Positions 331 to 46,000 of a stretch of DNA of 64,000 nucleotides are shown piece by piece. The DNA is from Chrysomallon squamiferum. Taxonomy: Eukaryota > Animalia > Mollusca. The position numbers were made by a program, and so were the translations under genes. Position 1 is the first letter of the stretch; every line of letters begins with the position of its first letter. The notes beneath the pieces were generated by a model. That model searched no databases, was not told the origin of the DNA, and was given only the letters and a program-made list of their open reading frames with translations. The DNA is taken from positions 15,810,001 through 15,874,000 of the forward strand of contig CM022665.1 in assembly GCA_012295275.1 (NCBI GenBank), read 5' to 3'.

Positions 331-3300
331 TTGTGTAAATCTATTAAGAAAAGATCGCGGCAAACCCTTTCTTCCACCACCCTGATTTTGTGGATTCTGA
401 CAGGCAAACAGTCTAGTGCTGTTGTGTTTTATGCAGAATGTTCTACCTAGTTCTGGTATGAACAGTTCTCCTCTGTGGTCCAGACAGGCATTTAGGCCCT
501 CTAGAACAGACTGGGATGCTAGATTCAGCTGAAAGCAAAATCAGATCGTCATAAATCATTGATTTCTAAATTTAAATCTTAAAACAAAATGATTAGATTA
601 TAAACAAAGTGGCTGCTGTGAGATCTGTTTTGCTTCTTATCATGTGACCCTTCAGTTCTCAGGTTAGTGCTTTAAGAACATTGGTAAAATCTTATCCATA
701 ATATATCATGAAAATGAAAAAACACACATATATTCAGTATGAAGTTAATGAGTTTATTTTTAATCTCTAACTATCAAAACATAAAATACATAATATTATA
801 TTCAGCTAATACCAGTTTAAATGAATGTCATTTGTTCCAGAAGACTGAGTTACAGTACCTCATCAAGAACAATCCAATGTCCAGCTTTTAGAGCTTGCAG
901 CAGTGGTCCATCCCTCCATGCAAACATGCCTCCTTCGCCTCCCTCCACTGGCAAATCAGCACCAAAGAGATCAGTCACATCCTAAAAAGAAAGAAGGATC
1001 AAGTAATAAATAAAAAAAACTAAATAATGATTATATGTATAATAGGATTATTCCAAGTGAATTGGAATAATTTATTGTATAGAATGACGTTTGCCAAGTC
1101 AAAACCAATATCAAACTATATGCCGAAGTAGGTAACTATGAAATATTACATTTCTTTCTTCCACTAAATGAAAATAAATATTTTATACAAAGTGTGCCAG
1201 TATTTTTTTTAAAAAAATTTAATTTTAATTTATTTATTAATTTATTTTCATTATTTAGTAATATGGAATATCAATGTTAAAAGTACAAACCTGAAAATAT
1301 AGTTATACTTTTAAAATAAACCTAAAAGAACACCATTGAAAAGTTATCTAAAGTAAAATAGCTAAATTAGATCCATACAGCCTCAATATTGCATATGAAG
1401 TAGTTATTTATTATAATCATATAATCAAAAGAATTAACATCAAACTTTGTGTTTGTCAATGAAACCACACCATTAAAAAGTTAGACAATATTGCTTAAAT
1501 GACAAAAATAAAAATTATCTTTACCATGATGTCAACCAATATGGAATAAATAATAGTTGTGCAAAACAAATCTGTTGTGTATACAGGAAGCCTTGCATAA
1601 AAATATATTCCTCATATTTGAAAGAAAACAGCAAGATTATATTATGTTTATTTAATACCACTTCAGTCAAATTTATAAGCCATCATATAAATATCATGTC
1701 TGTACTGTAATGAAAAACCCTTACAAATGTTAGAGTATAATCCACACTGTACAGATTTATTTAGCACTGCAATGAGACACATGAAAAATGTTTTTATCAC
1801 ATGACACTTTTCAGTGCAATTTTCAATATGAGATACAAAAAATGTGTCTTCTGTAAAAATGTATGGTTATGTTTTGACACAAGTTATTATACATATATTT
1901 ATATTATATTACTGATCAAAGTTTGATCATGGTGCTGTTAAAGAGATTCGAAGTTAAATCACAAGTGATAAATAAGTAGTGAAAAATGAAAAACTGATCA
2001 ATAAATGAATAAATAAATATGATTGATGAAATAGCTATTTTACTTTCTTGAAGTTTTTAGTTTATATAAATGAATGAATTTTAACCTAAAAAAAAAACCC
2101 AGATAACATCAAAGTCAACAAGTATGATAAATTCCATTGTACTCACTGTTTGTTCAGACAGGTTAATTCTAACTAGCTGTCTCCTGGCTGATCTTGCTAT
2201 TGCAGCAACCAGACTAGTTTTGCCAACACCTGGTGAACCTTCTAACAGAAGAGGTTTGGTTAGTTGCAGTGCACGGAGAATACGTTGTGCATTCATGCAT
2301 GTTGTTGCAGCCTGGAGGGCATATTTTTCTTCTGAGCTGTTAGGTAAATCACCTGTTAGAAAAAACCCAAGAAATAATTTGTTTTAACTTCATTTGTTTT
2401 CTTACTGATAAAAAATATAAATCAAAACACATAATATTTTTTCATTTGTATGTTTAACAAGTATGTATTAAATAAATAAGTAAATAATTAATAAAAAGAC
2501 AAAGAAAAAGAACTAATGCAAGAAAAAAGAAGAAATATATATATATCACTAAAAAGAAAAGAAAAAGAACAAAAAGAATTCAGATTAACAGCAATTAGAA
2601 ATTGAACTAACCTTTGTCTATGGCAAATGGTGGGATAGAAAAGAAAGTATCTGTTTCAGTAACATACATCTTCACAGCAGAATCATGTGCTAATTTGAGA
2701 TCAGCCAAACTGAATTCATGTCCAGTGAGTTTGTTAACTTGTTCAAGTAAAAAGTCCAAGCATGTTTTACGTGCCACATTAGCGTTGAAGTCATTTCCTC
2801 TCTGTGTGATTCCTAAACAGAGAAATGAATTCAAGATTTATGAAAATAAAAAGATGAAATAAAAAGAACTGCAGTAACAAAAAAACTAATAATTTCCTAC
2901 AAAAACAAGAGATAAATAAATTAAAAACAAAACAAATTTTCGATAAAACAATGGAAACTGATTATTTAATATTAAATTTCACCATTTTACTATTATTAGT
3001 AGTAATATACCATTATTATTATTATTTTCATCATCATCATCATCAATATTTTTCGTTTGTAGTCAATGTTATTATGCCTGTTTGTGTTATTTACTTCAAA
3101 GTTCTATTATATAAATTAACTCAATGCACCTTTCTTTTTTTCATCATGTATAACTTAATTCTTTAACTAATATCATTTGTTTCTTACCAGTTCCAAGACA
3201 GTCTACAAAAACAAGACAAGCTCCATGAATATATGCAACAGCAGGATCAAGATATCTGCCACAGATGTTGATGAACTGTACCCAACTGAGAATATCCCTG

Positions 3301-6300
3301 ATACTGACAGTGATCCTGTAAATAAAAATGACAACATTAATAATAATGAGGTGAGTGAAACAATTGTTTTAAATTTAAAAAGAAAAAAGTAAAAATAAAT
3401 AAATAATACTATTATTAATAGAAATTATTAACAATGAAAACATAATGAAAATTGCTTTGTTATTTGATTATAAAATATTTTAAAAAACAAAATGAAAATG
3501 ATATTTATCTCAAGCCAGGGAACATGTAAATGGCAACAAGAAACACACACACACATATATTTTTTGTCTGTTACAGGCATTATGGATTGAACTTCATATG
3601 TCTTAAGCATGTTTAAAAAATATGGTCACAGTGGAAACCAAATTTGACTATTATTTGTAAGAAACTTACAAGAAATTTAATAATAATAATTTTTATTTCC
3701 AACAACAAATTTTAATTCTATCTCAACTGGAACAATTCAAATGGCCCATGGAAAAAATTTAAACTTTTTTCTCTATATTTTAATATATAAATATCAGTCT
3801 TTTGGGTTTTTTTTGTTTTTTTTAAATCTTAAATATTTTTTCTTTAGTAAAATCAAATAAAAAATTGATGAATTTGGGTTTTTCTTTTGGTTTACCTCTT
3901 TCCAATTTCACTGTTATGAAACCAGTCTATGAAATCCATGATGGCTGCCCCAAATCCACTGGTACCATCTTGCTGGTTAGAGAGACAGATGTCATCGGTC
4001 AGATTGTGTTCAATGATGTCTATCAGATCTTGTCTCTGATTGGCTGGAGGGCACCAGATCTCTGTAAAACGATTCCTTAGTGCAGGAGATAACTGGAATA
4101 AATAAATGAAAGAATTACTATTCATTTAATCTCACCTGAATATATTTTATTATTAATTGTGATTAGGTGATAAGAGAATTTTTGAATTTGTTTTAGTCTT
4201 TTGTACAATGAAATGACAGAGAAGAAAACATTTGCTGTCATTATGCAGATTACTGTTACAGTTGTGCAGCAATGGATCTTTTAACAGCAACTTTTTGCTG
4301 AATGGAAAGGACATATCATGGTTTTGCCATCAGTTAATGCACAATGATTGGGATGGGAATCAGTGTGATAGTGGTACTGAAAAGTATTAAAAAACTTGTC
4401 TTTACTGAACTTAAAACATTTTTTTAATAAAATTAATTTTAAAAATAATAAAAATTAAAAGCAAATTAGGCTAAACATTCCAAAATATGTAAAACAACTT
4501 GGCCAAAAAGAAATTAGAAAATATAATAACATGTGATCAGCGTAAGTTTATCCAATTACTGTTACAGATAACAAATAGCAGTAATTTTAAACCTCAGAGG
4601 CTTTTCATTTTACATATTTAAAGTCAGCAAACTTTATTATGATGTACATTACTGATAACACAATCACTATTGCTACATTACCTCTTTCTTGCCAAAATCG
4701 CCACCAGGATTCATAGTGGCAAAGATTTGAAAACCTTCCTTAGCAACTACATGCTCTACCTCATTCTGGTTGCCATCACCACCACCTTTTTCAGCCAACA
4801 GCAATTTTTGTTCTGGTTCCAGAACGCTGTTCAGTCGCTCAAGAACAGAATCATCAGCAAGAGAAATTTCATCAATCAAAAACATTTCTCCATTTTTCAT
4901 TGCATTCACTAATGGTCCATCCACCCATTCAAAGAGTTTGTGTTCTTTTTCATTCTCCTGCGAGGAAAAATAAATAAAATAAAAAATAGAAAAGAGTCAA
5001 CATTTTGAAACAACATCTATGATATCTGTGGCAGCTATTACTTGCCTTGAAAATCATTTACAAGTTTAGAGCACTGTTATGTTTTCATTTTTCTTTCTTT
5101 TTTTTTAGCTATATTTAAAAAAATAAATATATGAAAAAAATGAAACATTGAATAATTTATTAAAAATACATAATGATAATATTAGAGCTAATCTGCTGCC
5201 AACAATCCATAGAATAAATCAAGAATTATCTTTTATAAGCATATATCAATGGATAGGTAGGCGTATGAATGTGTGTGGGTGTTTGTGTATGTGTGTCTGA
5301 TAATGAGTTATGAAGCTGTGGCTGGGACAAACAATTAAATAGCTCCAAGCTAAATTCTAATTTAAAAAAAAAAAGGGAATACCTCTTTGTCACCATGGTC
5401 CCTGACTGGTCTAAGTCCTCCAAGGAAATCAGCACTTTCTGTGTGCATATGACAGTTTACACTGTGTAGTGTTTTCTGTCGCAGTGCAGCATACATCTGA
5501 CACACAGTTGTCTTACCACATCTTTAAATAAAATAATATGACAGTTAGAATAATGTAGTGGTCTTTTGTCTAACACCCAGCTGACATATTTTAAATGTGA
5601 TTCTAATTTAGTTTTCAATTGACAAATTACCAAGTTTTAAGATTAATGATATGATTAAATTACATTTCATGTGTCTCTTTTAGTATGTTTATGCTTCAAT
5701 TTGATTTTAATATCACTTACCCTGTTTCTCCTACTAACAAGATTGGTTCATGAAACTTAATAGCTTGGCCAATCAAAACAGCCAATCTTCTCATGCTATG
5801 AGTCCAAACTATGTGCTGAAAGCCATCCACTGATTGGCTAACAGCCTCTTGCAGCATGGCAACAGTTGTGGAAGATGTGTTAGTGAAGAGATTGAATAAT
5901 GTTTCAGGTGACACTGTCCTTTTTAAGTGTTTTTTAATGACTTCTTGAATGACACCTGCTTCTTCATGTTTTCTCACTCTCCCTGCCAGCACCATGTAGC
6001 CTAGAAGAGTGAAACAAGTGGATGAATGAAAGAATGGCTGGGTGAGTATATGAATGTTTCTCTGAACTTGCCTTTTTACATATGTAACACATTTTAGAAG
6101 AAGAGCTAGAAGACAAAGGACAAAATGATTTAAAAAGAAAGAAGGAAAAAATTATATACAAGGAAAGAGACATAAGTTAAATGCCAAAGAAATAATACTA
6201 ATATTAATAAATAAATACATTTAAAAACATAGTAACCATAATTAAATAATAATAAAAAAAAAAAACAATGCCAAAAAACAAACTGATTGAAGAGAGAGTA

Positions 6301-9300
6301 AGTTTAAAATAACAGTCTCAGTCTTGCAGGTTATCTAGTATTTTATTTTCACTTTTATTTATAAAGATGCTATAAAATACCACAAAAAGGTGAAATGGCA
6401 ACATACATGCATTACCCACAAATAATGGAAAATTGAAAATGACTTAATATTATTCCAGTTATTATATTGTCAAACTATTATTAGCAAAGATTAATGACTC
6501 AGGCTTTTTGTGAAATGGGTATTCCATATGCTAACTGTTCCTATCACCTCTGTTGAGTAGTAAGTAATAATTATGATAAAAAGTTTGTATATACCATGGT
6601 CAGCAAGATGCTGGTCCCAATCATAAAACTTTTTGCTTGTTCCAGCCCCAGTAGCTTGGTAGCGTTCTGCCCAGCGGAACAAGTCTCTCAGAGTCATAAA
6701 ACCCTGCTTGCCAGCAAAAACACCAGAACTTCGTCTTCTTGTCTGAGATGGTAATAATTATCATGATGATAGCAACACAACAGTTAATATAACAAAAACA
6801 AGAGTTATTATGACCTTAATAAATAATAACAATAATAATAATAATAAATTAATGATTCTTGCAATAACAGCATAAACAATAAAACCACAACCTTAATAAC
6901 AATATAAAGATAAAAAAACTGTAATACTAATATTAATATTACTAATACTAACAATTGTAATAATAATAATAAAAAGAACCAGAAAATGAAGTACATTTCT
7001 AAAATTTAAAAAAATATATATTTATAAAATAAGTGCATTCAGTGATTTTACAATGCTAAATATTTTACCTGCAAATCCAACATGACTGCCACCAAACGTT
7101 TGGCATAAGACATAGGAATGCTGCATCGCTGATGTAAAATTGTCTCCAGTTCTGCACTTGGAAGTTCATCAAAATGGAGCTCAATGAATCGATTTCTGAA
7201 TGCTCTGGATAGCATCTGTTTTTAAATAAACAAATTATGTAATCAAATAAATAAATTTGTAATGGCCTATTCATTAATATCAATGTGCATGATCCAAAGT
7301 ATATTAGCTTTATAGTTATTGAATTAGAATGTATTTGCATTAAGAATTAACAAAGGTTTTATATTTAATTTAATAATAATAATAATAAAAACAGTTATAG
7401 TGTTAGTAGTGTTTGCAATATTAATATAAAAACAATGAAAAAACATAAGAAAAAATGAAATACAATCAATAAAATAAACATAACAAAATGAATTTAAATT
7501 TCTCTTGCAGAATGTTCTCTACAAAGCTATTTAAAATCAATTGTTTATTGTGTTCTAAACATTTAATATTATTTTATGATAACAACATTTGTAGTATTAC
7601 AGTAGCACTAACCTTTAGTGATGCCTATAGAAGTCAGAATTTTGACTGTGAAAATATACTGTGTTATAACAGCATCTACAATGCATCATATTAAATTTAC
7701 AATGACTCATGGGGTCTTGTCTGTTACAGAGAGGTTAATCATTACCTTTCTTCCTCCATATTGGCCAGGAGGATTCTGTGTCGCAAACAACATAAACTTG
7801 GGATGTGCTTTCACTGTTTCTTGTGTTTCTGGTATGAACAGCTCCCTGTTGTCATCTAGAAGCTGAAGGGTTAAAGTGAAAACAAAACAAATAAATAAAT
7901 ATGAAACTAAATTATGTGCATGTAACTTTTTTGAGAAATCAGTTAATAACAAAATGTTAAGAATATATAGATAATGATAGCTAAGTAAATAAAAGGAAGA
8001 TTCAAATTTTAATGATTCACTAAAATAAAAATAAAAAATTCTAAAAAGTCACAAAATTAATTGATATTTGTTATTTCTGGTTCTGCATGAAAATTAATCA
8101 CCTAGCTCAATGCTGATATTTCTTAATGCGACAACATCAGGTCAGCACAAAACACACAAAATAAGAATATACTATAATGAATTAGCCATTATATAATGCA
8201 TGTTAACAATTAAATTTCAATCTGTAACTACTGTTTTAATTAACAACAAATAGATATTAAATATTGTAGTTTTGCATTCTTTTGTTGCACAGTTTCAAAT
8301 TCTGCAGTTTTACAGAAAGGAAAATATGACATTATTATGTATGTAAAGTAGGGATTACACTCATGATATATGAGTATATTATGTACATTACACAGGTTAA
8401 TTTAGCACTGTAATGAGACACATGAAAAATATCTTTATCATATGACACTTTTCAGTGCATTTTTTATCTCATATTCAACACTTTGGAAATTAACAAAAAT
8501 AGTTATTGTAAATACTAAATCCTATGCTGTTATAAGCCAAATCAAGACACAGTAAATTATTTTACAATGATTTAAATTATAAATTTCTTAACACAGATTG
8601 TATTATTTCACTTCAGTTTTCAGAAAGATTGATTAAAATACAAAATTTACCATTAACAAACTAAAGAAATATAATTATTAACAAAGTTTTTTAACTTTCT
8701 ACTTAATGAACTCAAACATAGAGTAACACTCTTAAAATTTATTTTCCCTTCTCACACTAGTTATATTTTTTACTCACCTTAATCAATGAGCCCTACACCC
8801 TAACAGCATTTTACCAAATATATATATATTAAGCATAAACATAATATTAATTTACTTTTTCATAAATTCTGCAGCACCTCCATTAATAACATTAATTTAC
8901 CTTTAATCAACTCTTCAGTAAGTTTAGGCCAAATATTAATTTCCTTTCTACTTTCCAATAATTACTAATGATAACTTACCCTGTCATCAACTATACACCT
9001 TTTAGCAATTTCAGACCAACTAATATTATTTTGGACCATTAACTTACTCTGATTAAAGCTGAAAAAGCTCAAGCCACAAACATTAATTTCTCCTTCAAAG
9101 AAACTATAAATTGCAAACATCAATTTACCCTGTTCAATGCTTCCAAAACATCACTAGGAGCCAGGTTCAGTTCATCCAGAATTATCCAGAACCCCTGTCT
9201 CATGGCTTCCACTAGAATTCCTTCTTTAAACACCAGTTTGCCACTTTCATCTGCTGCATAACATCCCACATACTCCTGTAGATCAGTGTGCTCGTGGTTG

Positions 9301-12300
9301 TTGACGCGGACACATCGATTTCCACTTGCCTTTGATAACCATGTTATCAGACTGGTTTTACCAACTGATGTTTCACCTTGTATCAGAACTGGGTGCTGAC
9401 TTGAAAAGGAAATATAACTAATATTTAATACAGGATATTTTATTAATGACTGTTTTAATATCGTATTTGACTGGTGAAAGATAATGTGTTATACTTGATA
9501 TGTACCTTTTTGATTGGTCAAGGGTAATGTACAATACATCATATATACAATTACGTATGGCTTTCATACCTTTTTTGACTGGTAATGGTAATGTATAACA
9601 CAGAATTATACAATTACTGATGGCTTTCATATTTTTTTTGAGTGGTAAAAAGTAATGTATAATACAAAATATATACAATTATCAGTATCTTCTCTTTTTT
9701 GACTGGTAAAGGGTAATGTATACTACAGGATATATACAACTGCTGATGGCCTTCATACCTTTTTGGAGGGGTAAAATGTTATGTTTTAAAAACTAAAATA
9801 CATTATTTAATCTGTATGATTTATAATCAGTAAATCTCATTCTGGAAAAATAAAGAAAAATAAAAGAAAAATGAAAATACAGTTTGAGTTCTTAAAGAAA
9901 ACTGTTTATACTGTTACAGAAAACACTACTATGATAGTAAAATCAACACAGTACAGATTAATTTAGCACTGTAATGACACACATGAAAAATATTTTTATT
10001 ACATGATATTTTTCAGTGCAGGCTGGTCAATGTGACATATATCATACTTACTCAGTATGTGGAATACTAAAGATATTGGTTTGATACCTTCTCTCACATT
10101 ATATAATATTTTACATAATAGGGCTTGATCTTAGCAATAGTTTTAATGATTATTATATATAACACATGTATATTACACCTACCCAGCAGATACAATTCTA
10201 GCCAGATCTCTGAGATTTTCTCTCACAGATGGTGTTAGGATGTAATCATCTGCCACTGTGGGTTCCAGTGATCCCTGAGAAATCCAGTAGCCTTCAAATG
10301 ATATATACATTCCATCAGGTGGTGCTGGCACTTCATGTTTGAGGATTGACTTGCTATTTGTCTTCCCAATGACGTAATCACATATCAGTTTTCTAACAAC
10401 AGGATGAGAAGATCGATCAAGCTGAGTCAGAAAACTGAGACAGAATCCCTAAAAAATAATTAGTTATATAGTTAATTAAAACATGAGCAAGGTTTATGGT
10501 ATTTAAATGCCATATAATTATTTTCTCTCATAAAATATATATGTTTGTTTGGGTGTGTCCAGGGGTATATCTAGGGGAAATAGTGCCTATGGCAAGCACT
10601 GAAATTGCCCCCATGTCCAAACCTCTGACTCCAATTTTTTTATTCTAATAGAGCATTGTAGTTGGATACAGAATGAACTATTCAAAAAAAAAAAAGAATT
10701 CAAAAGACTTTGTGAAAGTGAAAGTGAACTGAGGAATTAATTTGTGAGGTATATGTGTTTTTAAGGATGAGAAAAACAACTAAATCCAACCACCATTCAT
10801 TAAATAAATGTTTTATTCAAATATATATTTAGGCTTTATATAAGAGTTTTGTTCAAGTAGATATCTAAGACTAAGTATTATACATAGTCATAAATAAGTA
10901 TAATCTACTTAAGCCTGAGGTATGAATATTATAAAATTTACACTGTAATGTTTTTAAAAAGAACATTAAATTCATAGATTACCTTATTTTACTATATTAT
11001 TACAAGCACAATATTTTTACATAATAATTTACGCAAGTTCTTTAACAATCTGATATATTTAGTTGGTTTTTCTAGTCAAGTCAGCACGTACATTCTAGGG
11101 AACATCCACTTACATTTACATATGTCATACAGACTTGCTTTTACCAACCCAGTTTGATACAGTCTTTGTCTTTCTTAATGCAGCCAAAACACTTCATGAT
11201 CTAGTGGCAGTGAATTTGTTTTAGGATACTAATCCTCAAATCAACATGGGAGTTTTTTGTTATTTTTCAAATTGCCTGCCATTGAATCACTGTACCAGTT
11301 GGCGTACTTTTACTTCTCTGTAATGCCTTTATAAATGACCTGGGTAAAAGATCACTGCATGCTATGTGCCTAATAACATGGTAATTTCTTATTTGTCCTC
11401 AAATCGAATGATACCAATTTGCTTGGACCTCAAAGTCTGGACAAATTTAATTACTAACCCTGGTGGGGGGGGGATTTTCTTACTTTTGATTTTCTCCCCT
11501 ACTGTTGCAATGAAATCTTCCTTTTGTTTTTAGAAATTAGATGACATTTTCCTGGCAGCTTTAGTATCTATATGTTTGAGAAATTCAATTCTTTTAGCAA
11601 TTTGTCCAGTACTCTTAACAGAGGTCACCCATGTTGCTAATGCGTTAGCTATGTTATATCACTCTTCTTGGCAGCACTTTCTCTTAGACTAACATCCAAT
11701 AAACTACTAAAATGTTTTGTGTACCAAGTGTTGCCTTTCTCTCCATGCTTGGCTATTTCTGCCCTTATTTCAGGAGAAAAATTATTGTTCTCTCATTTCC
11801 ATTTAATGCCACTATGACTAGTAACAGTTTCAGGTGTTCCACTGCTGTGTACTATCATTTTGCTGTGTCCATTCAGGCAGCTTTACACACAAACCTATCT
11901 TCATGTTACTGGTCTGTTTATGTACTGCAGCATGGTTACAAGTACTTTTTTTACATATATATATTTTTAGCCTCTATATAATTATATAGGTAATTCCATC
12001 CAGTATGGAGTTAGAAGTGGCAGAGACTAAATAATCATACTTATGAATACTTGAAACCCAGTCAACTTAATTATTAAGGGTACTGAGAACTAGTGCTAGT
12101 AGTCCACTGTTCTGACACTGGAACAGCAATATATTCACAGCTGATTATCAATTACAACACCAATTAAACATTTTATTACTTCAAAAGGATCACATAATGT
12201 AACATGGTGAGGAAAATAAATTATATCACACTAGAGGGAATAGTGATTCTGTAACTGAAAACTTCTGATTCATAGCTGTAACACAATTAAATCATAGAAT

Positions 12301-15300
12301 GATCAGTATAAGTAATACACTAGTTGCGTAACAAGGGAAAAAAAAGTATTATGGTTGTCACATTAATTAATAAAGTGTTGTGAAGGCACATTATTTTATA
12401 CATGCATTAATTTCATACTTTACAATACACAGACAGACACACATACACACACATCCACATACAAGAAGGAATCTGCTGTTTTAACTCCAAGTACTATTCT
12501 TATTCATCTACTTTAAGGGATCATTTACATGGACTTTTCTACATTGAAGGAAAGCATTTACCATCTCACTGAGGCACCAACTGGAAAAAGAAATAATCAA
12601 ATGGATACCTTATTATACCTCAGTTCACCAAACTTTCACCTATATTTATAAAAAGCAACTACATTTTAAAACCTATATTATTAATCATTAAAAAAATTAT
12701 GATGTACACTTTATATAAAAAATGACATATAAATTTTGATGTATATATTAATGCTAAATTAACAAACATGATTAGACAGTTACCTCATACAATGAACGTG
12801 ACACTAAGCCACAAGGATTTGATGCAGCAAATTTGAGAGCTCGGCACAAAGTTCTCAAACTGAATCAGAAAATCAAAATAGAAATAATTTACTATCATGT
12901 TCAAATCAAATTCTGGGATGTTAGAAATTAAATAGAACATATCAATACACATTAATGTTAATTTTCAGAATGCTTCAAGTAAAAAAGGAGTTTATTTATA
13001 AAATTACATTAAAAGTAGAAATCTTACTAATAAAATACGGTAAATGATAATCTTTGCTAAAAAGAAAAAAATTAACAAAAATGATTATACATATATGTAA
13101 ATTAAGGGAAAAACGGTTAAAAGAAGAGTGGTGTGATACCTGAAGTGAGGTCTATGACCTGTCCCATCAGTCAGATGTTTCTCTGCTTCAATTCGAACTT
13201 TCAGGTAGAAGTGGACAATCCTGTCAATGTGAGTGGGGGTCAAGGACAAACCTTTGAGGTAATCATTAATAAGAATCTTCAAATCCTGAACATCATTCAA
13301 CTCATCCACAAACAATTCTGTAAACCTGAAATTAAATAATTATGCAAAAATTAAAATTAAAATGATATATACAGGATTTGTACACCTTAGGCTGTCAAAA
13401 TTTACATAACTTTTCCAAAATTTTCCGTAGCCCAAACCCATTTCCAAACCTGATCACAACAAAGAGGGTTTTTTTTTCAAATTTTAGACATTTGTTTTTA
13501 GACAGAGTTAAAACTTGCCTTGACTAAGCTGTGTTGTATATAGGTAGGATTACTAGTAATAATAAAATTAATGTAATTAATTTTGGCATATTAAAATGCA
13601 GTTTTATACTTGGAGTGGACACGACTATGATGGTATGTAAGGTGACTGCCAGAAATATGAATACAGAAGTATTGCTTCACAAAAAGTTGTTGTGTTCCTT
13701 TCTTCTAATTCAGTTAATAACTTATACCTTTAAAATGCCCTAAATCCTACTCCTTATGGGCTTGTGGTCAGAATTATCAGTTGGCCTCAAAATGAAAAAT
13801 ATAACCAACCATAATGGGCTGTTCAAATATTACACAACACTATTCTTGTCAAAATAAAACATCCACCCACTCCATGCCAAACTATACAAAATTTAAGGTA
13901 ACACTTGAAGATTCCCCCCCCCCCTCCAACACACAGAGAATGCAACGGGGCAATGTTTATTTATATCCATATGTATTACAATGATCTCCTTAATAATGAC
14001 ATATTGCTGTAAGATGGGAAAAAAAAGCCTACAGGTTTTCACTTTTAACTGACCATCATATAAATACAATGTTAAAAATTAAATGTCTGGTATATTAAAG
14101 CATTTCAGCTGGGTTTACATTTACCTGTAAAAACCTATATTAACATATTTTTCAAACAATAACCCACAACTTTTTTTCTTATGGGACAGGGCGGATTATA
14201 TATGAATTTCATTTTCAATTTCAAATAATGTATACGCCACTTCTGTAAGTAGGATGTACTTTTGCATTTGGAACAGCTGATTACTGTTGCATTAAATCAT
14301 TAATTATGTGGCATGTTACTGTGAGCATGTTGATACCCATTCAACAGATTATACTCATTAGTGTTGTAATCAATTACACTGACCACTTAGCACTATCACA
14401 ACAAGCCTGCTCTGTCAGTCTGATAGAAATTTGCAACAAGTATCATCTATTTACAAACTGGAATACTGGAAACAAAATACAGTTGTTTTTAGAAATATGG
14501 GCCTCCTGCACAAGTGCAGATAGTCTGAGTTAATCTTTCGGGATCAGGATACAATGAAACCATTTTCTTTGGCTATGCCATAATGGCACCCTCATTATCT
14601 TGGTTAAAACGGGGCATTGGGTCAGGGCTAAATACTTGTGAAACAATCCAGTTTTTCATACATTTTATTTACAACAAGGACATAATTTTCCACAACTTTA
14701 CCATAGTCAAGGTAACAAAACCTGATTTTCCAAATCTTTCCAAAACATGTATGAACCCTGTATATAGATTCATGATGAAAAATGCTGCAATACCAGTATA
14801 TATTATGCAGATGACATGATTCATGTGACCCTATGAGATACTATAAAGTTAAATATTATGATGAGTATCAATGAATTCTTAATCTTATTTATACATTTAT
14901 TTCTACTCAGCAGCTAAACACCCATATATGAATTTGTCAGCATGTAATTAAACATTTATTCTTTTGATTATTCTAAGGCTACATTTATTTATAAAATACC
15001 AACTTGAAGTACCTGTCTATTTTTATAATTCATATTTATTCATGAAATATTAAAGAGTCCAGATTTGTGGCTAACTTGGTTATGGCCTGTTATATAATAT
15101 ACAATAATAATAATAAAATAATGATTAATAAAGTTACCTGTTTCTAATTCCTGGTGTGAGATCCTTTTTGCCAACATCAGTTGCAGGATTCATGCAGGCA
15201 AACAGACGGAAGTCAGGATGTCGTACTATTGGTTCAGCATCTCTGAAAACAAATATTATCTTCATTTTGAACAACAATGATCTTTTTAAGAGAATAATTA

Positions 15301-18300: not shown

Positions 18301-19743
18301 AAATTCCCGAATTTATAAAGTAAAATACCTAGCTGATGAGCTAAAAACTGAATAGATGATGTTTTTCCTGTTCCAGTCTCTCCAACCAATAATGCTGGTT
18401 CATTTCTTGCAACACAGACAGCTACTTTTTCCAGCAATGAAACTGACTGACGAGTGAAGGCAAATGTACCCTGTGATGTTCTGGAAATAAATTTTATAAA
18501 AATATGATTAATTCAGATGAACATATAAATTAACTAAAATATTTTATTAATTACTGAAAAATATTAGCCAAAACAAAGAAGAAAAAAAAAGACTAACAAA
18601 TACTAGAAATAGTTCTCCAGTATTTAATATGAATTTTACCATCACCTCCCCTAAAAAGTCACAAAATTAATTGATATTTGTAACTTCTGGTTCAGCAGTA
18701 AAATTAATCACCTAGCTCAATGCTGATATTTCTTAATGCTACAAAATCAAGTCAGCACAAAACACACAAAATAAGATATAAGAAATTCTATGTAAACTAT
18801 TGCTGTTACATGCATTGTAACAATGAGATTAATACATATAGCTGTTTTCCATCATTAAGCCAGTCAGGCTCATCCAAAAAAAAAAAAAAAAAAAAAAATA
18901 AATAAATAAATGATCTTAATTAATACCTCTTTATTTTGAAAATATCCACTGGTTTTTTGGGAAGGGCAACTCTACCAACAGTAAGTGTACTTGGTGTGAT
19001 GTCAATGTTTGGCTTGTGTTTACAGCAAAAATATTCTGCCTGAAAGTTAGAAATACTTTTATTAAATTTTCACAAATAAATATAATTAGAGTGTAATAAA
19101 ATAAATTAACTTAAATAGAAGTTTAATGGTTAACAAACTTTAAAAATTATCTCAACACCAAAAAAATAAACAAATAAATAAAACATGAAAAAAAAAAAAA
19201 TATATATATATATATTTAAAAAAATAAAATAAATAAATATAACCAAAATAATAATGATTTTTATATTTAGTACCTGTTATACAACTGTCATTAAATGGTA
19301 ACAATGACAGATTACAGTCTGCTTTTGAAAACAAAATACAAATGCTTATATTATCATGTTATTAGCATAAAAGTTGATACTGTATGATAGTTTATTAGAC
19401 ATAATATGAAAATATATTAAATGCAGTTTGGCTGCTTGCTTATATTTTTTTCAATAAAACAGAAGAGAAGTAATAATTAATATTTCTTTCCTCAAATATT
19501 AGTAATACATGGATTGTACAAGATTGCTAAATACAGGCATGAATGAACATTTTTTTGAATTATAATTTTTGATATTAAACTACCTCGTATCATTTAACCT
19601 TCTGAACTAGGCATTCCTAGGTATTTCTAAAGATGTTTGTTTATTATTTGAGACCAATGATACATTCAAAATGGAATAAATTATGAATAAATCAAAGTAA
19701 TATGTAGTCTGCCAGTTTACATGATGCTACTATCAGAAAGAAC

Positions 19744-25700: not shown

Positions 25701-26707
25701 CATTTATTAAAATTAAAATTAAAATTAATTTAAATTACTTTTTAAGGCCATGGCGAATATGAAAGCCATTTTCTAATATTAGTAAGGTTATATATTAAAT
25801 ATGTTTTATGGTCTGTGTTAATACACATCATTTTCAATAAGATAATGCATGTATAACACACACACATCAAATCACTTTTTAAGATCAGGTCTAATATGTA
25901 AGCCATTTTCTAATACTAGTAAGTTTATACATTTAAAATATTAAATTAAATCACGTTTTAAGGTCAGGGCTAATATGTAAGCCATGACTTAATGCAACAG
26001 CAAATTCTTCAGTCAAAAAAGAACCATGTTCAAGAACTGAGACTCTGGCTCGTTCTGCAATGTCCAGTATGACAGGCTGAAAACACCTACAGATGTCTTC
26101 AGTACATTCTTTATTAACTAGTAACTCAGAGAGTGAATTCATGAAGTTTAGTCTGTCTGATGGATTCCATATCTGGAAAGGAAAAAGCCTGGTTATTCTA
26201 CTTTTAAATAATTATGCGTATCTCTTTTAGTTTTCAAATTCATTTAAAAAAAAAAAAAATAAATAAAGAAAATAAAAACATTTAAAATAATATTTTGTTT
26301 CAAAGGCAGAGAGAGACGCTCAGTAAATTATAATTTTGCACACCATACACTATGTATCTCAATTCACCTGAGGTTTTCAATTAACACACAAATCAAATAA
26401 TTATAATTACAAAAATAATAATAATAAATAAAAATAATAAATTAATGTACACTTTAAAAATGATTTAATAACTATTATTAGTAGTAACAGTACTGCTATA
26501 AATAACATTAATCGCCGACTTACTAACTTTGGAGTGAACTTAAGAAAAGTATTAATAATTATAAATTTATCGTCTTCGTTAAGTTAATCAAATCACCTGT
26601 TTCGAAAGGTACAGTTTTAATTTGGAACTACACGTTCCATTTAACTGGCATAGTAATTTCAGCGATTCAAATACGATCCATTCCTTTGTAGTTCGTTCTG
26701 CGTCCAT
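331..26707 (-). CDS. MDN1: Midasin (MDN1/Rea1 AAA+ ATPase, 60S ribosome biogenesis); 5' part, 35 exons, gene continues beyond position 1
   Basis: Exon 1-2 junction LYLSKQ|IWNPSDRLNFMNSLSELLVNKECTEDICRCFQPVILDIAER resembles the metazoan MDN1 N-terminus. Five Walker A motifs: GPVGSGKT, GETGTGKT, GETSVGKT, GETGCGKT, GSPGVGKT, plus FATMNPGGDFGKKELSPALRNRFTEIW. GT-AG exons in frame: 26597-26707, 25955-26172, 25337-25433, 25070-25197, 24456-24563, 23642-23828, 22393-22602, 21745-21980, 21314-21428, 20593-20759, 19827-20004, 18927-19039, 18329-18480, 17846-17906, 17058-17172, 16839-16923, 16210-16313, 15379-15515, 15138-15242, 13140-13325, 12784-12859, 10183-10448, 9129-9399, 7746-7862, 7069-7215, 6595-6742, 5721-6000, 5383-5521, 4682-4957, 3896-4092, 3188-3315, 2612-2812, 2147-2352, 859-981, 331-528. 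Confidence 0.97.
1694..1818 (-). ncRNA. Intronic box H/ACA snoRNA candidate, copy 1 (predicted 18S rRNA pseudouridylation guide)
   Basis: On the host strand: hairpin GCACTG..CAGTGC with upper stem CATGTGA/TCATGTG, H box AAATAA, hairpin CTGTAC..GTACAG, then ACA+3 nt; 125 nt. Pocket AAAGTG/CTCATT, 14 nt from the H box, is complementary to 18S AAUGAG-UA-CACUUU. Confidence 0.8.
8043..8165. repeat. Dispersed ~125 bp repeat, near-identical to 18652-18776
   Basis: aaaaagtcacaaaattaattgatatttg...aaattaatcacctagctcaatgctgatatttcttaatgc...gtcagcacaaaacacacaaaataaga occurs twice in the same orientation in two MDN1 introns. Confidence 0.85.
8335..8459 (-). ncRNA. Intronic box H/ACA snoRNA candidate, copy 2
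   Basis: Same 5' hairpin and pocket as copy 1 (upper stem CATATGA/TCATGTG), H box AAATTA. Different 3' hairpin (GTGTAA/TTACAT, upper stem TATACTCAT/ATGAGTGTA, pocket 15 nt from ACA), then ACA-TAA; 125 nt. Confidence 0.8.
8740..9128 (-). repeat. Highly degenerate tandem units resembling the adjacent MDN1 donor site (exon 9129-9399)
   Basis: Recurrent attaatttac(c)/aacttacc motifs, spaced tens of bp apart, echo the true junction catcaatttaccctgttcaa. Confidence 0.45.
9400..9780 (-). repeat. ~60 bp tandem repeat (about 6 units) abutting and resembling the acceptor of MDN1 exon 9129-9399
   Basis: Unit approximately tttgactggtaaagggtaatgtataatacagaatatatacaattactgatggctttcatacctt. On the minus strand it reads pyrimidine tract-CAG|TCA, like the real ttccttttcaag|TCAG. 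Confidence 0.8.
9900..10020 (-). ncRNA. Intronic box H/ACA snoRNA candidate, copy 3 (5' pocket degenerate)
   Basis: GCACTG..CAGTGC hairpin, H box AAATTA, 3' hairpin TGTACTGT/ACAGTATA homologous to copy 1, ACA-GTT; 121 nt. Pocket has drifted to AAAATA/GTCATT. Confidence 0.65.
11100..11800 (-). mobile_element. Decayed pogo/Tigger-like (Tc1-mariner superfamily) transposase fossil in an MDN1 intron
   Basis: Frameshifted, stop-containing translations FSPEIRAEIAKH..KHFSSLLDVSLRESA, TKAARKMSSNF*KQKEDFIATV..IPP..LVIKFVQT and SKQIGIIRFEDK*EITMLL..QVIYKGITE recall pogo-family HTH and DDE-domain motifs. Confidence 0.7.
13372..14760. mobile_element. Non-autonomous DNA transposon with imperfect TIRs, TA-flanked
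   Basis: Left TATA|CAGGATTTGTACA, right TGTATGAACCCTG|TATA (reverse complement CAGGGTTCATACA, 10/13 match); tttccaaa sub-terminal repeats at both ends. Confidence 0.6.
17259..17489 (-). other. Long intronic fold-back: box C/D scaRNA-like candidate or old palindromic MITE
   Basis: Stems TTTATCAAACAC/GTGTTTGATAAA, TATCAAT/ATTGATA, GGGTCT/AGACCC and GCCAC/GTGGC; C-like ATGATTA and D-like ATGA at the ends within a terminal stem. Confidence 0.4.
18161..18226 (-). mobile_element. tRNA-derived SINE head (degenerate)
   Basis: A-box TAGCTCAGCTGGTA and decayed B-box GGTTTAGATCC at tRNA-like spacing; no intact cloverleaf. Confidence 0.5.
18652..18776. repeat. Second copy of the ~125 bp repeat at 8043-8165
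   Basis: Direct sequence identity by eye, with only a few substitutions. Confidence 0.85.
25735..25954 (-). repeat. Two decayed copies of the MDN1 exon 2 3' end plus donor site
   Basis: Real junction aaatcacgttttaaggtcagggctaatatgtaagccat; copies aaatcactttttaagatcaggtctaatatgtaagccat (~25869) and aaattactttttaaggccatggcgaatatgaaagccat (~25732). Confidence 0.85.
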
Positions 26708-43065: not shown

Positions 43066-46000
43066 GAAAGTTAAATACCATTCAAAATTTAAATGTTTCT
43101 AAACATTATTTCAGTCATAATGGCGAAGAAAGAGAGCCCAACATGATTCCATTGGCCTCCATGGTTGTACTACCCAAACATGCATCAATTCCTGAAATCC
43201 CTGGTGACTCAAATCTCTATTTTGAAGTGATGCTGTTCATCTTTGGTGTGATCATCATGTGTCTGCAGTTCATTAACCTGTACAAAACAGTCTGGTGGCT
43301 GCCACATTCACATTCTAATTATGCTTTGGTTTGTTCTATTAACTTATTAGTGTGTTTATGTATGTATAATCATAATAATGATATTTCAAAGGCCCACATA
43401 TAAACAGGAATACATAACTTTATTTATATACATAAACATACACATGTAAAATGTATTTACGTGTATATATGTATATGTATATATATATATATTTTTGCAC
43501 ATGTGCACACACACACACACCAAAACATTTTTTTTTTTTAAATTATCCTTAAGAAGTTAAAACAACAAAATTATATTATTTTCTCATTAATTTCACCAAT
43601 ATTACAGTTATAAAAAGAATTCTGGATCTGTCTTCAGTTCAGTGTAATATCATTCACTGATTCAGTTTGACTGAAAAAATAAAACAGAAATTTTTGTGTC
43701 TTTAACAGATTAAGCTTTGAGTTTAGACTCTTGAAATTACCATTATTTTGGGTTATTTAACAGAATGAGAAACATACATTGTTTATAAGAATTATTATTT
43801 TATTAGGAAATGCACATAATGAAACATTCATTGTTTTTTGGTTTTAAGTAGCATGTTTCAAAATTATGCAGACTATTGGAGAGTGTTCACTTATCACTGA
43901 TATTGATAAATTAAAAAATACAACTACACATATCATTCTTCTTTCTTTTTTTTTCTTCTGCAAATGTTAGATGTATAGTAATAATGCATATGTAATAATG
44001 TTTATGTGTCACTTGAAAAAAAATCATATTTGTTCTAACCCAGTTTATATGTGTATGTACACACACACACACACACACACACATTCATAAACTAATGTGT
44101 TGTGATTATAAAGATGTATTATGTGAAGAAATATGTAAACTTTCTTACAGAAATGTATTTTGATTAAATTGTTATTTCAGAACTTTTACCTGATTGACCC
44201 ATATCTGCTTCAGTTTCTGTGCTTACTGATGAGTCGTCGACTGATTGCTTGTTTTGTTCAAGAGGTTCGTATGAAATAGAATAACATCTTACAATTAGCC
44301 TGAGTATCTTCTGGTGAAGAACAGGTCAGACAGACATTTGGATGGATATCACTGGTTCTGTATTATTTTTTGGATATTCTTTGCCAACTATATGATTGAT
44401 TACAATTCCAGCTAGTATACTCATTTAACAATAATTTTGGTTTCACATTCCTTTAGATTGGTTGTTTTTGAGTTTGCTGGTAACATAAAAAGTACACATG
44501 CTACAAGAAGAAACACAAGACCCGTATCATAAAATCACTGACTCAGAAATCTTTGGATATGTTTGAATTGACCTAAATAGTGATACAGTGATCAGCTGAT
44601 TAACACGTGACAGGTTTTCAGTGTGACGTAAATGCAAGGATTTTTGACTTGACAAATCATGACATCGTTTAAAGATATTCAGTCCATTACATCTATTTGT
44701 GCTCATGTGTTAGAGTGTCCAAAATTTGTTACTGTAAATAATGTGGTAAATGTAGCTGTTACAAGACCAATTATATACAGTGGAAGCCATCATTTGTTTG
44801 TACTGTTATCAGACCAAAATTTGTTCATACATCTGTTAATGTGGATCATAATTATCATAATATGTTCATATATCTGATGATCGTGATTTGTACATTTGTG
44901 GATCATAATTAGATCATACAATGTACCTACCTCTGGAACAAAACATATCAATTCATATTTAATATGGATCATAGTAAATCTATTCATATATTGATATGTG
45001 TCTTAATTTGTATTCACATACTTGTTAATATAGATTTTGTTTTGTTTCTGATTATAATCATAATTTACTGACAACTTTTGTCAGTATGGATTATAATTTG
45101 TTCATATATAATTATATTTGTTAATATAGAATATAATTTGTTTTGTTTTTAACACTGATCATAATTTGTTCAGACATTAGTCCATTTTGGTTATAATTTG
45201 TTCACATATTTGTTAATGTAGATCATAATTTGCTTTGTTTTTAACTCATAATTTATGCCAGTCTTTTTTAATATGGGTCATTTGTTTCCTAGGTTTGTTC
45301 AGTACTTAACACTTCAAGTGTAATGGCTGATTTTGTGGCCTGCAAGATGTCACTAAATGACTGGTTAAGATTTAACATTCTACCAAATTCAAACAGTAGA
45401 GAACGTCGGCAAAACATGGATGTTTATAAATGACAACCACAATTCGCGAAAAACACTCAAGTTATGGAACACTGCTACCACTAGGTTTAATATAATCTGT
45501 AATTGGTCTGTATGTCTGTTAATATGTATCATGGTCTGTCCATTTGTCCGTTTGCCTAAGCCAGCCTTTTAGAACATTTGTTAATTTTGTTGATCTCCTA
45601 TCATGTGTTTTTAATGTGGACTACAGTCTGATAATTTAATGTTTGTTTCAGGTTTACGGAAGTCGATCATATAAAGTGTTTTACTGGAGTTTACAGCTGA
45701 TAAAGCTTCTCTTTGTCATTTTGGCTGTTGGCTGGCTGGGTTACACAGGATACTATGTTGTCATTCAACACTCACCACTTTACTGTTTATATCTCTGTTG
45801 TCCGTTTGTATCATTTTGTATTATTTATTTATTGTCATTATATTGATTAAAAGGAATGTATAATATGTTCCCCAGAATGATGATAACTTTAGTCAGTAAT
45901 GTAAAATATTTTAAATTAAATTTTTGATATATATATATATATATAATAACAATAATAATAGTTTAATTGGTTTCTTTTTCTTCTTTTTTTCTGATTGAAT

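Follow-up and report, generated by a model that had tools for sequence, protein, structure and literature searches.

Among known families, the one closest to the elements reported here is the box H/ACA small nucleolar RNA (snoRNA) SNORA35, or HBI-36 (RF00566, clan CL00034), which has been assigned to positions 566 and 350 of 18S ribosomal RNA (rRNA) by Deryusheva et al. (PMC6984369), the former site being predicted for its 5' element by Jorjani et al. (PMC4914119). Pseudouridine at 18S-566 was mapped in four amphibians and a lizard, but not in human or mouse (Deryusheva et al., PMC6984369). In mammals, SNORA35 is encoded in an intron of HTR2C and is specific to the brain (PMC6027130, PMC7038934), a preprint (10.1101/2024.10.03.616461) proposes a different site for mouse Snora35b, and in PMC11758842 SNORA35 is merely listed. 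In this study, we describe three elements, copies 1 to 3, located in introns of the midasin gene (MDN1/Rea1) of the mollusc Chrysomallon squamiferum, in a stretch of 64,000 nt (assembly GCA_012295275.1, contig CM022665.1, positions 15,810,001 to 15,874,000; hereafter the window). They are predicted box H/ACA paralogs: copies 1 and 2 very probably act as guides for pseudouridine formation at the 18S counterpart of human U566, and copy 3 is probably a duplicate in decay. The class, the target and the intronic duplication are already familiar, and the general understanding of H/ACA RNAs is unchanged by the finding; what is new is the location in MDN1 and a possible link with SNORA35. A lineage-variable 18S pseudouridine gains, in a third animal lineage, a predicted guide that scores below the Rfam cut-offs, and the three copies would illustrate the gain and decay of guides inside one gene.

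Structure and Target of the Predicted Guides

The 5' pocket of copies 1 and 2 (AAAGUG/CUCAUU) forms six plus six Watson-Crick pairs with the sequences on both sides of a U-A in surrogate 18S, and the U stands 14 nt from the H box; a bipartite pocket flanking an unpaired U-N at 14-16 nt from the box is present in these two copies and absent from copy 3. An earlier reading of this DNA made without database searches (the sequence-only reading) had proposed this pocket, its distance from the H box and its complementarity to 18S, all of which were found in copies 1 and 2, and had placed the target at about human 18S U566, a position borne out when we counted along the human 18S sequence given in the PMC6984369 supplement. 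The 12/12 pocket match is the top Watson-Crick match in surrogate locus L012, which contains 18S, 5.8S and 28S, and it also comes first in the 18S of L004 and in that of L006; the runner-up has 8 pairs. With G-U pairs allowed, two G-U-rich fits (13-14 pairs, of which 6-7 Watson-Crick) outrank the target in L003 and L009. Twelve pairs were reached by 18 of 3000 dinucleotide-shuffled rRNA sets (a chance of about 0.006) and by 2 of 400 block-shuffled sets, and by none of 400 shuffled pockets. The 3' pockets reach at best 10, 8 and 9 Watson-Crick pairs in the rRNA of L012, all inside the range of 40 shuffles each; a 6+4 fit of the copy 1 3' hairpin to the same target U lies in the shuffled range and was rejected as chance, and so was an 8+4 fit of the copy 3 3' hairpin to U624/625 of L006 and L004.

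All nine scanned loci among L001-L010 are eukaryotic small-subunit rRNA. These ten loci are short contigs with the eukaryotic 18S motif in bacterial assemblies of the GTDB collection, and are probably contaminants. A search of viral contigs for the 18S motif gave 0 matches.

The three copies share one layout, namely, a 5' hairpin (nt 2-55), an ANANNA box (nt 57-62; AAAUAA in copy 1, AAAUUA in copies 2 and 3), a 3' hairpin and, after its stem, an ACA located 3 nt before the proposed end of the RNA, the ends being predicted. The hairpin-ANANNA-hairpin-ACA order claimed by the sequence-only reading is thus found in all of them. Folding energy favours the sense strand of the host: minus-strand folds of copies 1, 2 and 3 differ from shuffles by z of -3.3, -5.0 and -3.1, and plus-strand folds by -0.8, -1.2 and -1.9. 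It had also been claimed that the G-U pairs form only on the sense strand; the asymmetry in energy holds, but the exclusivity does not, as plus-strand folds contain 2-4 G-U pairs. Two hairpins are formed in the minus-strand folds of copies 1 and 2 and in the consensus fold of the three, while copy 3 folded alone prefers a different fold. The 5' lower stem is invariant across the copies, and the 3' hairpins have diverged with pairing kept (at 3 of the 32 pairs of the consensus, both partners have changed). In a crude de novo scan of both window strands for the H/ACA layout, copies 2, 1 and 3 rank 1, 2 and 7 by energy among 26 candidates.

Results of our comparison leave the coordinates and lengths of the three paralogs (121-125 nt, one per MDN1 intron, all on the MDN1 sense strand) exactly as the sequence-only reading had given them. 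Pairwise BLAST identities among the copies are 85-90% over 68-88 nt (E 1e-21 to 1e-27), 77 of the 125 columns of their alignment are invariant, and the likeness ends at the element borders, ungapped 40-nt flanks matching at just 9-17 of 40 bases. Copies 1 and 2 differ at 5 positions of nt 1-62, none of them in the pocket and one converting G-U to A-U, and copy 2 is free of listed variants in the main contigs of the DNA runs X4 and X5. Searches of the window with BLAST and nhmmer returned the three copies and no further ones. A covariance model built from the three copies and run unfiltered on the window likewise found no fourth copy; the matches that it added were antisense images of the three (37.6, 30.5 and 23.5 bits) and a 25-bit match at 43356-43476 overlapping a TA/CA microsatellite, all rejected as new copies, and the remaining 26 of 33 matches have E of at least 0.28.

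As hairpin repeats that are short, rich in A and T, dispersed and sharply bordered, the elements could also be copies of a miniature inverted-repeat transposable element (MITE) or of a neutral hairpin repeat, with a match to 18S that arose by chance. This explanation is extremely unlikely, given the chance of the pocket match stated above, the orientation of all three copies as the host, and the presence of only three copies in the window by the covariance model. Inspection of the three copies revealed neither terminal inverted repeats of more than 5 nt nor target-site duplications of 5 nt or longer. The sequence-only reading had named hundreds of genomic copies as the sign of a MITE. Counted at 80% likeness in the two DNA runs, depth bins over copy 2 are at 23-29 in X4 (single-copy level 19.3) and at 50-60 in X5 (49.7), and the main bin of copy 3 is at 19.3 and 53.1, respectively; over both copies this corresponds to 1.0-1.5 and 1.0-1.2 times the single-copy level, which speaks against a MITE. 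Nearby A-rich tracts have depths of 125-340. Being taken from contigs, with some records filtered and 130 further pieces unlisted, these depths bound the copy number and do not count it.

From the observed sequence, layout, host introns and complementarity to the surrogate 18S, we infer the expression of the RNAs, their assembly into ribonucleoproteins and the modification of the target, as well as the state of copy 3. By the established H/ACA pathway, the snoRNA would be co-transcribed with MDN1 and freed by splicing, and its ends would be trimmed to those protected by dyskerin, NOP10, NHP2 and GAR1. The 5' pocket would pair with AAUGAG and CACUUU flanking the unpaired U-A, which would bring the U to dyskerin at a distance of 14 nt from the H box; the role of the 3' hairpin is probably structural only.

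Several results weigh against the function proposed for copies 1 and 2. At the gathering thresholds of Rfam there are 0 matches in the window. The target searches used eukaryotic rRNA genes as surrogates for those of this species, and the 58 surrogate loci were retrieved by the target motif, so they show the position of this motif rather than its frequency or universality. The covariation comes from just three paralogs and is thus weak (covariation term -0.21 kcal/mol). The read-based data (DNA and RNA contigs) span copies 2 and 3, copy 1 and its intron being outside that coverage. The sole listed RNA piece on copy 2, a 247-nt contig with a depth of 2.2 and two listed copy-1 letters, may be DNA or pre-mRNA, and no mature RNA was seen in the assembled RNA-seq contigs, which cover MDN1 exons. 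Zebrafish 18S carries C at the target site (supplement of PMC6984369), and in human and mouse U566 is not modified even though human SNORA35 contains the antisense element (PMC6984369).

The last of these points provides the precedent of a guide kept without modification. Together with the loss of the pocket in copy 3 and the RNA-seq result, it may suggest that the copies are real H/ACA genes that no longer modify the site, either as silent relics or as RNAs that are expressed and inactive, like mammalian SNORA35. We consider this unlikely. Copies 1 and 2 retain an identical, fully complementary pocket, in contrast to their 3' hairpins and flanks, which have diverged, and the U-A context of the target is that of the modified site in the Xenopus 18S line, and not the U-C of the unmodified human site (PMC6984369). 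The preferred interpretation of copies 1 and 2 remains that of guides acting on the U566 equivalent.

State of Copy 3

The pocket of copy 3 (AAAAUA/GUCAUU) differs by three changes from that of copies 1 and 2. Within nt 1-62 copy 3 has 6 differences from copy 2, of which 3 fall within the 12 pocket bases and a fourth breaks an upper-stem pair. In addition, three nucleotides at about 10003, at the base of the 5' upper stem, are missing from the main contig of run X5 but not from X4. The three pocket changes and the deletion seen in one of the runs make it probable that copy 3 is decaying and unlikely that it works as a guide for the 18S-566 site.

The concentration of half of the copy 3 differences in the pocket could, however, also mark a switch of target, and switches by point mutation are documented (PMC6984369). 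More generally, the elements might be H/ACA snoRNAs with another real target, a small nuclear RNA (snRNA) or another rRNA site, our search having covered rRNA. We regard such readings as very unlikely: with surrogate rRNA, the 5' pocket of copy 3 forms no more than 6-7 Watson-Crick pairs, which is at or below chance, this copy also has the broken upper-stem pair and, in X5, the deletion, and the 3' pockets, as stated above, match rRNA no better than shuffles. Decay of copy 3 is likelier than its retargeting, as judged by the comparison with surrogate rRNA and not with snRNAs.

Relation to SNORA35 and to Drosophila Guides

At E-value thresholds, SNORA35 is the best Rfam family for all three copies, with 35.2 bits for copy 1 (E 0.0027), 34.1 for copy 2 (over 8379-8460) and 17.4 for copy 3, all of which miss the gathering cut-off of 39 bits. 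Shared with SNORA35 are the H/ACA layout, the length, the 5' lower stem GCACUG/CAGUGC and the pocket residues AAGUG and CUCA, and, in copies 1 and 2 but not in copy 3, the 5' antisense element for 18S-566. The occurrence in multiple copies is also shared, as Xenopus has two SNORA35 copies about 6 kb apart (PMC6984369). As judged from these sequence features, the copies would act like the 5' domain of SNORA35. In contrast, their 3' hairpin aligns poorly and is devoid of the 18S-350 guide of non-mammalian SNORA35: the best fits of the three 3' pockets to 18S-350 on L004 and L006 comprise 8, 2 and 5 pairs, with a shorter arm of 3, 1 and 2, at distances of 17-18 only. The host is also different, being HTR2C in mammals and MDN1 here. 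Since they score below the cut-off, lack the 18S-350 guide and have a different host, we do not file the copies in SNORA35. While the sequence-only reading was right in recognizing H/ACA guides, it did not name this vertebrate family as the closest known one.

A large part of the SNORA35 score is contributed by the boxes, by pocket bases that the target dictates and by the lower stem, and the GCAC/GUGC core of this stem also occurs in the SNORA22 consensus, so that it is weak evidence of descent. A descent common to the copies and SNORA35 is plausible, and we put forward only tentatively that the copies are true protostome homologs of SNORA35/HBI-36, which have lost the 18S-350 guide and turn over by intron-to-intron duplication. 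If so, the guide would predate the protostome-deuterostome split, residing here in a ribosome-assembly gene, and the brain-specific orphan snoRNA of a mammalian serotonin-receptor gene would descend from a housekeeping 18S-566 guide. No invertebrate homolog of HBI-36/SNORA35 was found by titles among the papers listed in our literature search, and HBI-36 and MDN1 are absent from the main text of a chicken snoRNA paper (PMC2653536). Metagenome contigs scanned with a homolog pattern yielded 0 matches, which is little informative, as the pattern was strict and the collection mostly microbial.

In surrogate locus L004, which we take to be fly-like, the target U falls at position 525 of the 18S as delimited by Rfam, and on this assumption the site number agrees with the link to the Drosophila Psi18S-525 guides suggested by the sequence-only reading. 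The register agrees as well: Psi18S-525f starts GTGGAGGTAAAG, with AAAG at nt 9-12, as in the pocket here (PMC9149858; 12 nt of 525f compared). The stem does not, the first 8 nt of 525f being unlike the lower stem of the copies. Like the elements described here, the Drosophila guides are multi-copy (525b, 525f, 525k), 525b being named in PMC7528653 with nothing more. Our literature search on pseudouridine at Drosophila 18S U525 found no paper, and a placement of the fly guides in Msp300 was discarded as unsupported by a separate search, which gave unrelated entries only.

Host Gene and Coordinates

The host gene extends beyond the left end of the window. Its exon translation matches solved midasin structures (PDB) with E of about 2e-98, and over 11 exons it is 70-77% identical to midasins of four molluscs, 70% to that of a brachiopod and 59-68% to those of five arthropods; the identity to Trichoplax is 61% (10 of 11 exons). 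These values by themselves make a mollusc or another lophotrochozoan the likely source. The segments 7863-9128 and 9400-10182 are absent from RNA contigs of X6 and X7, which join the flanking exons, and therefore copies 2 and 3 are intronic (Table 1). The intronic placement of the three copies on the sense strand of the host is that of box H/ACA guide snoRNAs. The sequence-only reading had drawn attention to the gene of a 60S-maturation ATPase as a host of 40S guides; on general knowledge, a 60S factor gene hosting a 40S guide is unremarkable. The copies resemble the known intronic H/ACA guides of ribosome-biogenesis hosts in their position in sense-strand introns, local intron-to-intron duplication and independent fates of hairpins (PMC6984369). 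They differ from that class in the host itself, as midasin was not named as a snoRNA host in the literature searched; genome annotations and snoRNA databases, which were outside this search, may list such genes.

Table 1. Coordinates in the window of the predicted snoRNAs, their parts, the host gene and the relevant introns.
Feature	Position	Length and type	Strand	Basis
Copy 1, predicted box H/ACA snoRNA	1694-1818	125 nt	minus	Folding, pocket and box inspection, Rfam SNORA35 match
Copy 1 parts	Pocket strands 1805-1810 (AAAGUG) and 1771-1776 (CUCAUU); H box 1757-1762; ACA 1697-1699		minus	
Copy 2, predicted box H/ACA snoRNA	8335-8459	125 nt	minus	Folding, pocket and box inspection, Rfam SNORA35 match
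Copy 2 parts	Pocket strands 8446-8451 and 8412-8417; H box 8398-8403; ACA 8338-8340		minus	
Copy 3, probably decaying paralog	9900-10020	121 nt	minus	Altered pocket, weak SNORA35 match
Copy 3 parts	Altered pocket 10007-10012 (AAAAUA) and 9973-9978 (GUCAUU); H box 9959-9964; ACA 9903-9905		minus	
Host gene midasin (MDN1/Rea1), N-terminal and AAA-ring exons	328-26202		minus	PDB midasin matches; tblastn with molluscan midasins, placing exons from 26202 down to 328
MDN1 intron with copy 1	982-2146	1165 nt, GT-AG	minus	tblastn exon ends and splice dinucleotides only
MDN1 intron with copy 2 (also with unrelated element B)	7863-9128	1266 nt, GT-AG	minus	Joint 7862-9129 in RNA contigs X6, X7
MDN1 intron with copy 3	9400-10182	783 nt, GT-AG	minus	Joint 9399-10183 in RNA contigs X6, X7

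Other Elements of the Midasin Introns

Another repeated element, assigned by us as element B, is present in two copies in MDN1 introns, at 8041-8171, in the intron that also contains copy 2, and at 18651-18780. The two are 93% identical over 131 bp, have the same orientation and show a depth of about twice the single-copy level in both DNA runs. The copy at 18651 folds into three hairpins. Element B has no credible Rfam match and, when read on the minus strand, neither an H/ACA nor a C/D layout, and there is no rRNA antisense of at least 10 nt common to both copies; a 14-nt antisense match to L012 was rejected, as it sits in internal transcribed spacer 1 and is missing from the second copy. 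Element B could be another small RNA.

A weak H/ACA-like candidate at 14282-14427 (minus strand), ranked 17 of 26 in the layout scan, lies in the long MDN1 intron between the exon matches at 13402 and 15137; its full-length fold is not one of two hairpins. In the copy 3 intron, a tandem repeat with units of about 62 nt occupies 9436-9803. The region 11348-11990, also intronic in MDN1, contains several short open frames that match none of four midasins and may, as a guess, be a transposon remnant, and three degenerate direct repeats are located at 25729-25985 in a 5' intron of the gene.

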